The notes under the pieces: model-generated
The model's input: the letters and a program-made list of their open reading frames with translations, nothing else
Told to the model about the DNA's origin: nothing
Database searches by the model: none
DNA from: Longimicrobiales bacterium
Lineage (GTDB): Bacteria > Gemmatimonadota > Gemmatimonadetes > Longimicrobiales > Gaopeijiaceae
Reading direction: 5' to 3'
NCBI GenBank assembly: GCA_965238005.1
Contig: OZ250165.1
Location: forward strand, 1,216,001-1,280,000
DNA: 64,000 bases
Part shown: in pieces, positions 1,686 to 7,061 of the stretch
Layout of the letters: the number at the start of each line of letters is the position of its first letter
Numbering within the stretch: position 1 is the first letter of the stretch
Made by a program: the position numbers and the translations under genes

Positions 1686-4085
1686 TCAGACTCGTGTGGA
1701 GTCCCCGCTTTCCGGCGCGATGGGCGCTCGTAGCACCTCGTCCGGAATCGCGAACCCGTCCACGAGGAACACGGCTTGCTCCCTGATCTCGGAGCAGAGC
1801 TCGTTCACGAGCCATCGGATGGCACGTGTCTTGGCCGGCTCCATATAGCCGCTCTCGAGGTACCAGGCCCGGTTCGTCTCCATGGTGGCCAGGGCATAGA
1901 GCGTGGCCAGGCCATCCAAGGCCTCCGAGAGCCCGGGAGTCGGAGCACGCACGACAGCGTGCCGGAAGCGTTCCAGGACGAGGCGCTCGACGTGGGAGTG
2001 CGCCAGGGTAACGAGGTGGTCCTGCGTGCGGTTCATGGCGTCGAAGGAGTGCACACCGTCTTCCAGGAGATCCCTGAGACGCCTGGCCGCGGAGGTCAAT
2101 AGGCGATCCTCCCTGTATCGGAAGGCGGCCACGTGGAATTCGGGGTCCCGGAGGTGATCCTCGTCGGTTCTCCGAGTGACGACGGGGTTCATCTCCGTCA
2201 AACGCACTCCTGCCCGCTCGGCCACGTGTCGAAGCATCCCCCAGAGTCTCAGGTCTCCCAACTCGTCCCGATAGCCCGACAACAGCCCCTTCGCGACAAG
2301 TTGAAGCAACACGGGGTTGGCGCCCTCGAACGTGGTGAAGGCGTCGACATCGTTCCGCAGGACACCCAGGGGATTGGCCGCCAGATACCCCTGGCCGCCA
2401 CAGGCCTCCCGGCAGGCCTGGATCGTCGCCACCGCGGAGGCGGATGCGTAGGCCTTGAGACCGGCGGCGTCGACCTCCACCGCCCTGTCGGGCGTTCCTC
2501 CGTCGGGGCGTCCTTCTGACTCGGAGCCCTCTGCTGCCTTGGTCACCTCTCCGCCGGTCGTGTAACGCCTGATGAGGTCCCGGACCGCGAAGTGTAGTCC
2601 GTATGTGGTGGCGAGCCGGGGCAACAGGAGGCGTTGGTGGACCCGGTAGTCGAGGATCGGGGCCTCCTCCGAGCCGAACGGCCCGAACTGCCGGCGTCTA
2701 TCGCCGTAACGTATCGCCACGGTTAGGGCGGTCTTGGCGGCGCTCACGGACGCGGCCGCCACGCTCACCCGGCCGGCCACGAGCGTGCCCAGCATGGTGA
2801 AAAAGCGGCGACCGGAGCTCGGGATCGGGCTCGAGTAGACGCCTTCGGGGGTCACCTCGCCGAAGCGGTTGAGGAGGTTCCCCCTGGGGATCCGAACGTC
2901 GTGGAAGGACAGGGTCCCGTTGTCGACCCCGTTCAGGCCCACCTTGTCGTCCCGATCGGTGATGGTCACTCCGGGAAGAGGTTGGCCGTCACCGTCCCGG
3001 ATTGGAACCACGAAAGCGTGGACTCCGTGGGGCGTGCCGCCCACTTCCAACTGGGCGAAGACCGTGGCCATGCGGCCGTGGAGGGCCGCGTTCCCGATCC
3101 AGTCCTTTTTTGCGTCCGGCGAGGGGGTATGAACGACGAACTCTCCGGCGTCCGCGTCGTAGCGGGCGACCGTCTCGAGATCCCGAACGTTCGAGCCGTG
3201 CCCCGTCTCTGTCATCCCGTAACAGCCCGGAAGCTCCAGGGAGCCTATCCTGGCGAGGTACGCCTCGTGATGGTGCGCCGTGCCGAGCTGGAGGATGCTT
3301 CCACCCCAGAGCCCAAACTGTACCCCGAACTTGACCAGCACACTCAGGTCTCCGTAGGCCAGAGTCTCGAAGACCGTGATGGCCGCGCCCGGGTCGTCCC
3401 GGCCGCCGTAGGCCGCCGGGTACTCGAGGCTGCCCAGGCCCTCCCGCGCCAGTACCTGGAGCGCCTGGAGCACCCGCTCCCGGTACTCGCCTCTAGGCAG
3501 CCCCGCCGGCAGGGCCAGCTCGGGGGATTTCATGAGCTCGAGGACGCGGGTCCGTATGTCGACGTGCGTGTCGTTCAGGTACCAGCCGAGAGACTCAATC
3601 CAAAAGCGTGTGTGCCGGTGGCGCTCGCTGCGGGGGGGGCCGGAGACGCCCAACAGCTCTCGAACGGCTTCCGGCCCGGGTATCCCAAGGCGCTCCTCGG
3701 CCCGGGCGAGGGCCTCCGGCGCGCGATCCTCACTCCAGGGTCCCGCCGTCAGCCCCGCCCCGCGGATCAGCTCGAGCCCCAGGCCTGCAAGCGAATCGGG
3801 CACGCGCCGGTCTTCGGGCCACCAGCTCCGGACGATCTCGCGCAGCTCCACGACGGCCGTCGGGGTCGGTGGTGAGTCGGGACGGAGCCAGCTCCTGAGG
3901 ATCTCCCGGCCTTCAGTATCGAGCCATTCCTGGTCCTCCAGCCCCTCGCACAGGACCAGCAGCTCGTCGGGGGTCAGAACGCCGTCGCTCCAGACCATCT
4001 GGATCATGGGCAGGAATGCCAGCAGATCCAGGCGGTGGGACGGCCAGACGGGCGGGCCTTCGGGAGGCCGAGTCATGTCGGTCAT
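1686..4085 (-). CDS. Acyl-CoA oxidase/dehydrogenase with N-terminal TerB-like helical extension
   Basis: GCYGMTETGHGSNV, KDWIGN, KVGLNGVDNG, REACGGQGY, TFEGAN motifs; N-terminal VWSDGVLTPDE; start moved to ATG 4085. Confidence 0.9.
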   Translation of the reverse strand: MTDMTRPPEGPPVWPSHRLDLLAFLPMIQMVWSDGVLTPDELLVLCEGLEDQEWLDTEGREILRSWLRPDSPPTPTAVVELREIVRSWWPEDRRVPDSLAGLGLELIRGAGLTAGPWSEDRAPEALARAEERLGIPGPEAVRELLGVSGPPRSERHRHTRFWIESLGWYLNDTHVDIRTRVLELMKSPELALPAGLPRGEYRERVLQALQVLAREGLGSLEYPAAYGGRDDPGAAITVFETLAYGDLSVLVKFGVQFGLWGGSILQLGTAHHHEAYLARIGSLELPGCYGMTETGHGSNVRDLETVARYDADAGEFVVHTPSPDAKKDWIGNAALHGRMATVFAQLEVGGTPHGVHAFVVPIRDGDGQPLPGVTITDRDDKVGLNGVDNGTLSFHDVRIPRGNLLNRFGEVTPEGVYSSPIPSSGRRFFTMLGTLVAGRVSVAAASVSAAKTALTVAIRYGDRRRQFGPFGSEEAPILDYRVHQRLLLPRLATTYGLHFAVRDLIRRYTTGGEVTKAAEGSESEGRPDGGTPDRAVEVDAAGLKAYASASAVATIQACREACGGQGYLAANPLGVLRNDVDAFTTFEGANPVLLQLVAKGLLSGYRDELGDLRLWGMLRHVAERAGVRLTEMNPVVTRRTDEDHLRDPEFHVAAFRYREDRLLTSAARRLRDLLEDGVHSFDAMNRTQDHLVTLAHSHVERLVLERFRHAVVRAPTPGLSEALDGLATLYALATMETNRAWYLESGYMEPAKTRAIRWLVNELCSEIREQAVFLVDGFAIPDEVLRAPIAPESGDSTRV

Positions 4086-5805: not shown

Positions 5806-5889
5806 TCGCTGACCGCGGTGGCTGAACACTTCCCGCTGGCTTCGGCTTGTCCTCCTCGGTTCGTTGATCATCAGCAGCGGTGGATTCGA

Positions 5890-5929
5890 CAGAGGTGGTT
5901 GACCCTATGCAGAGGTGGTTGACCCTATG
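5890..5929. repeat. Perfect 20-bp tandem duplication CAGAGGTGGTTGACCCTATG x2
   Basis: Seen directly, intergenic. Confidence 0.95.
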
Positions 5930-6065
5930 TCGAGGGCCGAGTAGGAAGGCGCACGCCAGGCAACGCCGGCCGGAGGCAAAGACGCTGGATCCACACCGGG
6001 GGCTCCTGGGTACCGGGTCTTGGACCGGCGCCCCGCCGTTCCACCACCGATACGCAGGAGGATCC

Positions 6066-6644
6066 GTGGTCAAGACCGCATCGACGATGGCCCCCATCGG
6101 TACGCAGGCTCCAGGGTTCGCGCTTCCCGACACCCACGGTGGAACCGTCTCACTCGACGACTTGGCAGACGCACCGGGTCTGCTCGTGGTCTTCCTCTGC
6201 AACCATTGCCCGTTCGTGAAGCACCTGCGTGCCGAGCTCGCCGACTTCGCTCGGGTGTACCAGGAGAAGGGGCTCGCCGTGGTGGGCATCAACTCCAACG
6301 ACGTCGAGACCTATCCGGAGGACAGTCCCGAGATGATGGCTCGTGAGGTGGAGGAGGTGGGGTACACCTTCCCGTACCTGTTCGACGAGGATCAGTCGGT
6401 GGCGAAGGCCTATGCCGCCGCCTGCACGCCTGACTTCTTTCTCTTCGATGGAGAGCGCCGCCTGGTCTATCGAGGGCAGTTCGACGACAGCCGACCGGGC
6501 AACGGCGTGCCCGTGACCGGGCATGACTTGAGGACGGCGACCGATGCTCTGCTGGAAGGAAGGCCCATCTCGGGCGAGCATCGGTCCAGCGTCGGCTGCA
6601 ACATAAAATGGAAGCCGGGAAACGCGCCGGCCTACTTCGGCTGA
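6066..6644 (+). CDS. Thioredoxin-fold AhpC/TSA-like protein
   Basis: AGGAGG then GTG; APGFALPD, CNHCPFV, ACTPDFF, YRGQFDDSRPG, SVGCNIKWK. Confidence 0.92.
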   Translation: MVKTASTMAPIGTQAPGFALPDTHGGTVSLDDLADAPGLLVVFLCNHCPFVKHLRAELADFARVYQEKGLAVVGINSNDVETYPEDSPEMMAREVEEVGYTFPYLFDEDQSVAKAYAAACTPDFFLFDGERRLVYRGQFDDSRPGNGVPVTGHDLRTATDALLEGRPISGEHRSSVGCNIKWKPGNAPAYFG

Positions 6645-6682: not shown

Positions 6683-6729
6683 AAAAAACAACGCGCCGTC
6701 GGGTCAGCCGGCCCGACGGCGCGTTTCTT
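6683..6729 (-). terminator. Intrinsic terminator, strongest on the minus strand, probably bidirectional
   Basis: 14-bp perfect stem 6690-6703/6712-6725, then GTTTTTT on the minus strand and TCTTC on the plus strand. Confidence 0.85.
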
Positions 6730-6788
6730 CTGTCGCAACCCGGCGCGATGGCCGCTTATGGCGCGAACAGCTGAAGCCGATTCGGCTC

Positions 6789-6851
6789 CTACAGACCGAA
6801 ACGGCGATCGCTTGCCCTTGCCAGGCTGGACAGGCTACTTGGACTAGACAA
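6789..6851 (-). other. Candidate 20-aa small ORF (MSSPSSLSSLARASDRRFGL) or structured RNA behind an extended Shine-Dalgarno
   Basis: Minus strand TAAGGAGGTGATC-AA-TTG; GGAGG to TTG spacing 7 nt; TAG at 6791-6789. Confidence 0.5.
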
Positions 6852-6977
6852 TTGATCACCTCCTTATTTCGGTTCGACTGTGGGCGTATCGCCGGCGGGC
6901 TCCGGGACCCGCGGTCCGCGTCCTTTCCCCCTCACTTGGGGGGCCGGGGCGGCCCAGACCGTCCAAAGGTCAACGCC

Positions 6978-7006
6978 AACCTACGGGGCCGACCCGATGA
7001 GATCAA
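6978..7006 (-). promoter_or_regulatory. Putative sigma70 promoter for the small transcript
   Basis: TTGATC-17 nt-TAGGTT on the minus strand. Confidence 0.55.
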
Positions 7007-7061
7007 GAGGAAATCAACCACGGCGTGTAGTACGCCGTGACACCACTACATACGGGATCCG

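Follow-up and report, generated by a model that had tools for sequence, protein, structure and literature searches.

Features of the locus

The element lies on the minus strand of a 64-kb stretch of DNA from a Longimicrobiales bacterium (phylum Gemmatimonadota), which is referred to here in its entirety as the window. A first, sequence-only reading had proposed a small transcription unit at this place, and all of the features that it had listed were located on that strand where it had put them (Table 1). The intrinsic terminator was called by a scan, and its stem starts 63 nt past the open reading frame (ORF). The same inverted repeat was also flagged on the plus strand, behind the convergent AhpC/TSA gene.

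The promoter-like boxes of that reading, TTGATC and TAGGTT, proved to be conserved in position but did not pass as consensus elements: a promoter consensus scan of the window returned no sites, with neither hexamer passing, so support for the hexamers comes from their positional conservation in relatives. At the −35 position the nearest relatives read TTGAnn throughout, with identity in loci L003 and L004, and the box pairs are kept as TTGAGT-17-TACCTT in L005 and TTGATC-17-TAGCTT in L006, while the −10 position of L007 holds TATGTT. In another clade, GTATACATT is kept immediately 5′ of the first hairpin.

Table 1. Features of the element (window positions) and RNA-library contigs at a relative's locus (positions of that locus)
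Feature	Positions	Strand	Remarks
−35-like box TTGATC	7001..7006	minus	Same distance in four nearest relatives
−10-like box TAGGTT	6978..6983	minus	17-nt spacer after −35; start predicted at ~6971
Whole transcription unit	~6971 to 6683	minus	Predicted ~290-nt RNA
5′ leader, structured, poorly conserved	6867..6971	minus	Includes hairpin 6912-6895 (GCGGG/CCCGC)
GCCC	6882..6885	minus	Invariant in 77/77 rows of alignment A3; possible partner GGGC 6814-6817
13-mer TAAGGAGGTGATC	6866-6854	minus	Unique in the 64-kb window
Extended Shine-Dalgarno AAGGAGGTGATC	6854..6865	minus	Perfectly complementary over 12 nt to the 16S 3′ tail of this genome
Mini-ORF MSSPSSLSSLARASDRRFGL	6789..6851	minus	TTG 6851-6849, 20 codons, TAG 6791-6789
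H1, 5′ strand	6820..6827	minus	ORF codons 9-11; pairs with 6737-6744
H1′, 5′ strand GCGAT	6807..6811	minus	ORF codons 14-15; pairs with 6745-6749
Hairpin H2 (TTCGG...CCGAA)	6781..6800	minus	Stop codon in loop; 81.3% paired, 3/5 double changes
Possible helix H3, CTGTT 6770-6766 with GACAG 6734-6730	6730..6770	minus	Weak: 67.7% paired, 3/5 double changes
3′ strands of H1′ and H1, ATCGC GCCGGGTT	6737..6749	minus	Pair counts on alignment A3
Intrinsic terminator	6683..6725	minus	14-pair stem 6725-6690, T run 6688-6683 (GTTTTTT)
Contigs at locus L165	3008-3255, 3037-3260, 3083-3263		Assembled contigs, metatranscriptome runs

Distribution and genomic context

The element is present as a single copy in the 4.84-Mb genome. 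Using BLAST with a 331-nt query, matches were found in 31/41 related genomes; full-length identity was 98% within the genus, and in three families of the order the core was 67 to 83% identical. A scan for the exact motif identified 109 loci, and among the 80 titles listed, 77 were of Gemmatimonadota or its orders, the others being two Gammaproteobacteria and one "uncultured bacterium." A covariance model of the element core (R1; 156 positions) was then applied to 151 genomes sampled evenly over the phylum, and exactly one match per genome was found in 60 of them (59/150 leaving out the unpublished genome G025). By family, matches were distributed as 15/16 (f1), 2/2 (f2), 1/1 (f3), 26/72 (f4), 9/31 (f5), 1/1 (f6), and 5/7 (f7), with R1 giving none in families f8 to f12 (0/20; stricter filters lose weak matches). 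From its single copy, its conserved promoter-like boxes and terminator, and its occurrence once per genome across this sample, we conclude that the element is a conserved gene rather than a product of chance.

In the window's family, the element is usually found after a Peptidase_M50B-like gene (9 loci) and faces an AhpC/TSA gene, which in the window is the convergent next gene. Neighbors vary between families, and no common same-strand downstream gene was found.

Contigs from RNA libraries were identified for a relative (locus L165, genome G103). Three metatranscriptome contigs of 248, 224, and 181 nt, one from each of three studies, lie on the element with 0 mismatches; such contigs give no strand, level, or true ends, and the evidence is that of a relative and not of the window organism. 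Their upstream ends (3255, 3260, and 3263) fall 14 to 22 nt after a pair of boxes, TTGCAG-17-TACCAT (3305-3277), and a contig from a run that is probably DNA passes through that place (3085-3750), a weak hint that the contig ends mark the 5′ end of the RNA. Six runs recorded as RNA contain a small part of the 3-kb stretch of L165, and the three metatranscriptome runs have no contigs on its flanks, where missing contig cover is not evidence of absence.

RNA structure

To count pairs, 77 sequences were aligned with MAFFT independently of any structure, without fitting to one (alignment A3). On this alignment the tested structure had 90.5% of cells paired, against 25 to 42% when the 3′ partners were slid by 1 to 3 columns, and its covariation score was reached in 0/500 shuffles. 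The strongest covariation was found in H1, which is 98.4% paired with 6/8 pairs changed on both sides, and which was also predicted by RNAalifold on the 77 sequences as a long-range helix of RCCYGGC in the frame with GCCRGGYU before the terminator. RNAalifold likewise showed the terminator stem to covary across relatives. H1′ (GCGAU:AUCGC) is 93% paired, with 2/5 pairs changed on both sides, and an 8-nt bulge with the invariant GGGC lies between it and H1. The possible helix H3 crosses H1, so that the two would form a pseudoknot or belong to alternative folds; it encloses a small hairpin (6762-6751). Hairpins had also been claimed for the GC-rich leader, and that included in Table 1 has moderate comparative support (79.8% of cells paired, double changes in 5/5 pairs), but the remaining leader helices had only 40 to 64% of cells paired on a poor alignment, with no support for three of the four.

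Candidate pairings with both sides invariant comprise GCCC:GGGC, a local hairpin of the Shine-Dalgarno (SD) sequence (GGA/UCC, GAU/GUC), and GGUGAUC:GAUCGCC. Folded without constraints, the RNA has a minimum-energy structure (−138.5 kcal/mol; z, −2.82) that leaves AAGGA unpaired and joins GGUGAUC to the conserved GAUCGCC over 7 bp. The SD is predicted to be accessible, from invariant positions that lie outside the reach of covariation. As forcing H1 and H1′ costs only 3.8 kcal/mol over the minimum-energy fold, two competing folds are plausible. The covarying helices identify the product as a structured RNA, a result that would also suit a nontranslated riboregulator.

The proposal that an unannotated small gene lies here, equipped with a promoter and terminator, was thus supported by conservation, covariation, and single-copy occurrence, as well as by the RNA-library contigs in a relative. 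On comparative grounds, the locus is a genuine small RNA gene with transcription of its own.

Extended Shine-Dalgarno sequence and 16S tail

The 13-mer at the center of the element occurs once in the window, and no match was obtained across 100 shuffles. It had been described as a 13-nt perfect complement of the 16S rRNA 3′ end; the 13-mer is there, but against the genome's own 16S the complement is 12 nt, as the sole 16S gene terminates ...GGCTGGATCACCTCCTTTCT and places a U opposite T6866, the earlier count having been made with the Escherichia coli tail. The computed duplex of AAGGAGGTGATC with this tail comprises 12 bp (−21.6 kcal/mol), and AGGAGGTGAT within the SD is invariant in A3. Long SDs occur commonly in this genome of 64.8% GC, where the 12-mer is found five times (one copy being the rDNA itself) and GGAGGTGATC 66 times, both strands counted.

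A motif parser succeeded in 53 of the 59 published genomes with hits, and three of the six misses have GGAGGTGGTC. With the 16S tail of the window genome assumed for all 53, the complement ranges from 10 to 18 nt with a mode of 13, and under the same assumption it reaches at least 16 nt in only three genomes. The spacing from SD to start codon is 7 nt in 50 of the parsed genomes, as it is from GGAGG to the TTG of the window, and 6 nt in the other three. One Gemmatimonadota genome, G122, has AGAAAGGAGGTGATCCAG followed by GTG, which is the alphaproteobacterial arrangement.

The short open reading frame

An ORF of 14 to 22 codons is retained in 53/53 parsed genomes, with 20 codons in 29. The start codon is UUG in 48, GUG in 5, and AUG in none, and all three stop codons are used (TGA in 21, TAA in 17, TAG in 15). 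In alignments read by eye, the frame survives an in-frame 3-nt insertion at the divergent locus L162, and at the likewise divergent L159 a 1-nt deletion has occurred, yet the frame stops close to its usual position.

Among 98 distinct 20-codon frames, no codon-like substitution pattern was found. The synonymous share of codon differences was 0.23 in frame versus 0.154 and 0.244 in the other frames, and third codon positions were the least variable (mean entropy, 0.59 versus 0.71 and 0.75). The peptides are similar within subclades, and the apparently conserved residues (A-R/W-A-S-D-R) fall on the bulge and on H1′, that is, on paired or invariant RNA positions, so the peptide sequence looks like a by-product of RNA constraints. 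By these measures, what is maintained is a short frame that can be translated, and not a protein-coding sequence. This absence of selection at the codon level points to the RNA, or to its being translated, as what matters.

Comparison with rre genes and CC2171

The closest parallel was found in the rre genes of Alphaproteobacteria. As described by Hahn et al. (RNA Biol 2016/17;14:1353; PMC5711450), the orphan mRNA rreB of Bradyrhizobiaceae measures 165 nt, of which 17 nt are complementary to the 16S 3′ end, and has a 14-codon frame that begins with GTG; it cosediments with 30S subunits and is weakly translated, owing to the long SD and the GTG start. According to the same text, mutation of the start codon to a stop stabilizes the RNA, raising its half-life from ~10 to ~37 min, and a derivative with a 14-nt complement lost its predominant ribosomal localization. 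A complement of 16 to 17 nt is the published hallmark of rre, rreR of Rhodobacterales has 18 codons and, like rreB, uses GUG, and in that text analogues are reported only in four alphaproteobacterial orders, their function being unknown according to the authors. RreB and RreR are viewed there as conserved small proteins, and the synthetic peptides were unstructured (PMC5711450).

The element resembles rre in being an orphan small transcript with its own promoter-like boxes and terminator, in an SD that continues on either side as a long complement of the 16S tail, in the non-AUG start behind it, and in a very short ORF (rre frames have 14 to 25 codons). As in rreB, predicted folds leave the complement single stranded in its 5′ part and paired elsewhere; as in rre, genomic context is not conserved outside the family and peptides are alike within clades only. 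The two differ in the complement, as the 12 nt of the window, or the phylum mode of 13, fall short of the published hallmark, and the complement of the element usually stops short of the start codon. The RNA is also longer than rreB (~290 versus 165 nt) and its leader before the SD spans ~105 rather than ~8 nt, UUG replaces GUG in most genomes, and the element has a conserved core of its own (GCCC, UUGUCUAGUCC, and GGGCAAGCGAUCGCC) with a covarying helix that links the middle of the ORF to the 3′ domain. The host phylum is Gemmatimonadota and not Alphaproteobacteria, and the experiments cited here are those on rreB.

No Rfam family was found at its gathering threshold in the 64-kb window. The best subthreshold match was CC2171 (RF01867), at 25 bits (E value of 0.0031 on 701 nt) against a gathering score of 75. 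The sequence-only reading had named a match to an already described Rfam family as grounds for its refutation, and such grounds exist in part, in the subthreshold match to CC2171 and in the publication of the kind as rre genes. CC2171 is a Caulobacter small RNA (sRNA), Northern validated in Methylorubrum according to the part of the preprint available (bioRxiv 10.1101/2022.01.24.477521), and is filed by Rfam as noncoding. Its consensus starts with GAAAGGAGGUGAUCCAGUGUCU and goes on to a long-range helix in which the beginning of the frame pairs with the sequence that precedes the terminator, as in the element, but the model has 159 positions and its helix strand lies at codons 3 to 5, versus 9 to 15 in the element.

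When alphaproteobacterial loci were collected with our own motif scan, most were found to have short ORFs, of 14 codons in Bradyrhizobium and 18 in the Rhodobacterales type, with ~21 to 26 codons in many other loci and at least 43 in a few. Those of the alphaproteobacterial loci that were scanned scored 37 to 97 bits on CC2171, including 43.6 bits for an rreB-type locus beside a tRNA gene and 37 to 40 for the rreR type; one Gemmatimonadota locus scored 35.6. Since loci of both types match CC2171, the family and rre appear to be one and the same. Conversely, R1 applied to motif-picked loci from Alphaproteobacteria and other phyla matched almost solely the SD and the first codons, and homology of the element with CC2171 or rre is not established by these comparisons.

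A 17-nt form of the motif, AAGGAGGTGATCCATTG, was also seen to head recurrent mini-frames in loci labeled as other phyla. These recurrent mini-ORF families carry the labels Eisenbacteria, Acidobacteriota, Verrucomicrobiia, Planctomycetota, Nitrospinota, and Prochlorococcus (metagenome-assembled and other genomes); by our own estimate ~70 chance matches of the 17-nt motif are expected in the whole collection, and only recurrent families count.

STAB-SD sequences, the 5′ stabilizers that act in cis at the 5′ end of long Gram-positive mRNAs and stabilize them, are another SD-like arrangement that binds 30S subunits without efficient translation and affects RNA stability. The element differs from them in being an orphan RNA, and a ribosome engaged at the start codon of rreB shortens the half-life of that RNA.

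In the literature searched, most of it outside subscription journals, no rre was reported beyond Alphaproteobacteria. The text of Hahn et al. (PMC5711450) contains neither "CC2171" nor "Rfam," and the only paper found for "CC2171" was the Methylorubrum preprint, the available part of which does not mention rre. A literature listing on structured RNAs of Gemmatimonadetes contained nothing relevant, and the motif letters were found only in mentions of 16S primers. Within this literature, neither the occurrence in Gemmatimonadota, nor the combination of long leader, UUG start, 20-codon frame, and ORF-to-3′ helix, nor the absence of codon-level selection was found in print.

Interpretation

The locus is probably an orphan gene for a structured "mini-mRNA" of ~290 nt that shares its kind with rreB and rreR, the rre genes of Alphaproteobacteria (Rfam CC2171). 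The sequence-only reading had offered two outcomes, and the one in which the RNA binds 30S subunits fits the behavior of its only studied relatives, as rreB does so. Counting against the rre-like reading, the complement is only 12 nt, when an rreB derivative with 14 nt had already lost its ribosomal localization, and long SDs are common in the genome.

We consider it unlikely that the element is instead a purely noncoding structured sRNA, a riboregulator or protein-binding RNA whose SD-like stretch pairs internally or with C/U-rich targets and whose frame is incidental. Such an RNA would account for the strong covariation in H1, H1′, and H2, for the substitutions that are not codon-like, and for the 7-bp pairing available to GGUGAUC, and an open frame of 20 codons is not improbable by chance at 65% GC. 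However, the start lies 6 to 7 nt from GGAGG and a stop follows within 14 to 22 codons in every parsed genome, with all three stops in use; the frame survives the insertion in L162 and, after the deletion in L159, still ends near its usual position; the same arrangement recurs in unrelated sequence families of other phyla; and the frame of rreB is translated (PMC5711450).

The second outcome offered earlier, a strongly translated micropeptide, received no support, and we regard an ordinary micropeptide gene, with the 20-residue peptide as product and the long SD serving high expression, as quite improbable. Here the in-frame synonymous share is not raised, third positions are the least variable, the conserved residues fall on paired or invariant RNA positions, and AUG is never used as the start, while in rreB the long SD and GTG lowered translation and the synthetic peptides were unstructured (PMC5711450, available text). 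What speaks for a peptide is the retention of the ORF across the class, the likeness of peptides within subclades, and the view of Hahn et al. that RreB and RreR are conserved small proteins.

A cis-acting role is very doubtful, whether as a leader-peptide attenuator, for which a leader-like ORF followed by alternative helices and a terminator, with H3 crossing H1, could be cited, or as a 3′ untranslated region or processing product of the Peptidase_M50B-like gene that precedes the element in nine loci of the family. Both were rejected because genomic context varies: neighbors differ in other families, the next gene in the window is convergent, and promoter-like boxes lie between the M50B stop codon and the element. 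A ribosome-dependent attenuator was examined separately and rejected, as the downstream genes differ and none is conserved on the same strand.

Least credible of all is a divergent housekeeping RNA of the phylum, above all 6S RNA, even though the element is single copy and widely conserved and RF00013 finds no 6S RNA in the genome (a silence that says little, since the model also misses 9/14 control genomes), because the supported fold is a branched or pseudoknotted core with a separate terminator and not an end-closed long rod with a central bubble, because an SD, start codon, and ORF are foreign to 6S RNA, and because tmRNA, RNase P RNA, and SRP RNA lie elsewhere in the genome. The genome copies of tmRNA and RNase P RNA are at C1:1989786-1990140 and C1:3884071-3884453, respectively, with ARAGORN finding nothing in the window, and a candidate SRP RNA is at C1:1386954-1387052 (37.3 bits, slightly below the cutoff). 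The element had not been recognized earlier as tmRNA, SRP RNA, 6S RNA, or RNase P RNA, and these identities are rejected here; for 6S RNA, there was no match to the model and the fold is not rod-like.

Proposed mechanism and meaning

If the rre-like reading is correct, the single-stranded AAGGA would act as a seed which, with the rest of the 12 nt (13 to 14 in most relatives), would pair with nearly the whole free 16S tail. By analogy with rreB, this pairing would dock a 30S subunit with the UUG, 7 nt downstream, at P-site distance, and the overlong SD helix together with the weak start codon would keep elongation rare. A ribosome that did translate would have to open H1 and H1′, which tie the ~20-codon ORF to the 3′ domain, and opening them would remodel the RNA and perhaps trigger its decay. 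For the element, the 30S docking, the weak translation, and the translation-dependent turnover in this scheme are all carried over from rreB. The functional product is most likely the interaction of RNA and ribosome, or the act of translation, rather than the peptide.

More tentatively, and with some doubt on our part, rre-like "ribosome-docking mini-mRNAs" could form a widespread class of single-copy genes, not confined to Alphaproteobacteria, that serve as a translation-coupled switch reporting or buffering the pool of free 30S subunits competent for initiation, with the peptide as a by-product; such a class may be defined by a full complement of the 16S tail, a non-AUG start, and a frame of 13 to 33 codons within a conserved fold, and the Gemmatimonadota family would form one of its lineages.

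The rre transcripts are among the oddest in bacteria, as they hold the whole anti-SD tail and are barely translated. That a version of distinct structure exists in so distant a phylum speaks for selection of the arrangement for a basic role tied to the ribosome, and the Gemmatimonadota family offers a second, independent system in which to probe that role.

Terminator stem of the element and an inverted repeat upstream of it

The terminator stem of the element also scored as terminator-like on the plus strand, where it lies 46 nt past the stop of a convergent AhpC/TSA-like gene. A single inverted repeat may end both the element and the AhpC/TSA-like transcripts. On the other side, the interval from the Peptidase_M50B-like stop codon to the −35 box of the element contains a 7-bp perfect inverted repeat (CACGGCG...CGCCGTG), with GTTGATTTCC directly after it. 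This repeat may act as a weak terminator for the Peptidase_M50B-like gene upstream; the terminator scan of the window made no call there.

Coordinates of features near the element and elsewhere in its genome (G000; C1, a contig of this genome)
Feature	Sequence	Position	Strand
AhpC/TSA-like gene	window	5880-6644	
Terminator stem of the element	window	6690-6725	
7-bp inverted repeat and GTTGATTTCC	window	7014-7036	-
Peptidase_M50B-like gene, stop	window	7062	
AAAGGAGGTGATCC site	G000:C1	1386407-1386420	+
SRP RNA candidate	C1	1386954-1387052	

Housekeeping RNAs and a further 16S-tail complement

Both tmRNA and RNase P RNA were detected in the genome carrying the element, while SRP RNA scored just below the cut-off and no match to the Rfam 6S model was found anywhere in that genome. 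Outside the window, the 14 nt of AAAGGAGGTGATCC are perfectly complementary to the 16S tail. This site precedes the SRP RNA candidate by approximately 530 nt and has a GTG or ATG start some 10 to 15 nt after it.

Mini-ORF families in other lineages

The 17-mer AAGGAGGTGATCCATTG precedes recurrent mini-ORF families outside the Gemmatimonadota and Alphaproteobacteria (loci L316 to L435, none in the window). A 14-codon frame ending in ..VEV[AT]SS was present at at least 16 loci, which, where titles were shown, were labelled as Candidatus Eisenbacteria, Acidobacteriota and Verrucomicrobiia MAGs. Three loci from Planctomycetota carried the 13-codon frame MM[NI]VRGSA.R.VR, another three, of Nitrospinota type, had frames of 13 to 14 codons, and nine of Prochlorococcus type had frames of 33 to 35 codons. 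Frames of 30 to 31 codons (MSSER...VEQPS) were found at about 10 alphaproteobacterial loci. The match of R1, the covariance model of the Gemmatimonadota element core, to these families was restricted to the Shine-Dalgarno sequence and UUGUCUAGUC.

CC2171 and rre-type loci

Among the loci scanned, those of rreB type have 14 codons and adjoin a tRNA gene, while those of rreR type have 18 codons. In the portions of the literature consulted, there is apparently no link between the names CC2171 and rre. One locus outside the Alphaproteobacteria and Gemmatimonadota, on a contig of a Planctomycetaceae-labelled MAG (L186), scored 38.9 bits against CC2171, and its motif is followed by a frame of 10 codons. 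Either a genuine rre-like gene or a binning error could explain this locus. Published-type rreB and rreR loci (L224, L187, L193, L179 and others) score 37 to 44 bits on CC2171, below its gathering score of 75, and the Rfam model therefore seems to under-annotate its own relatives.
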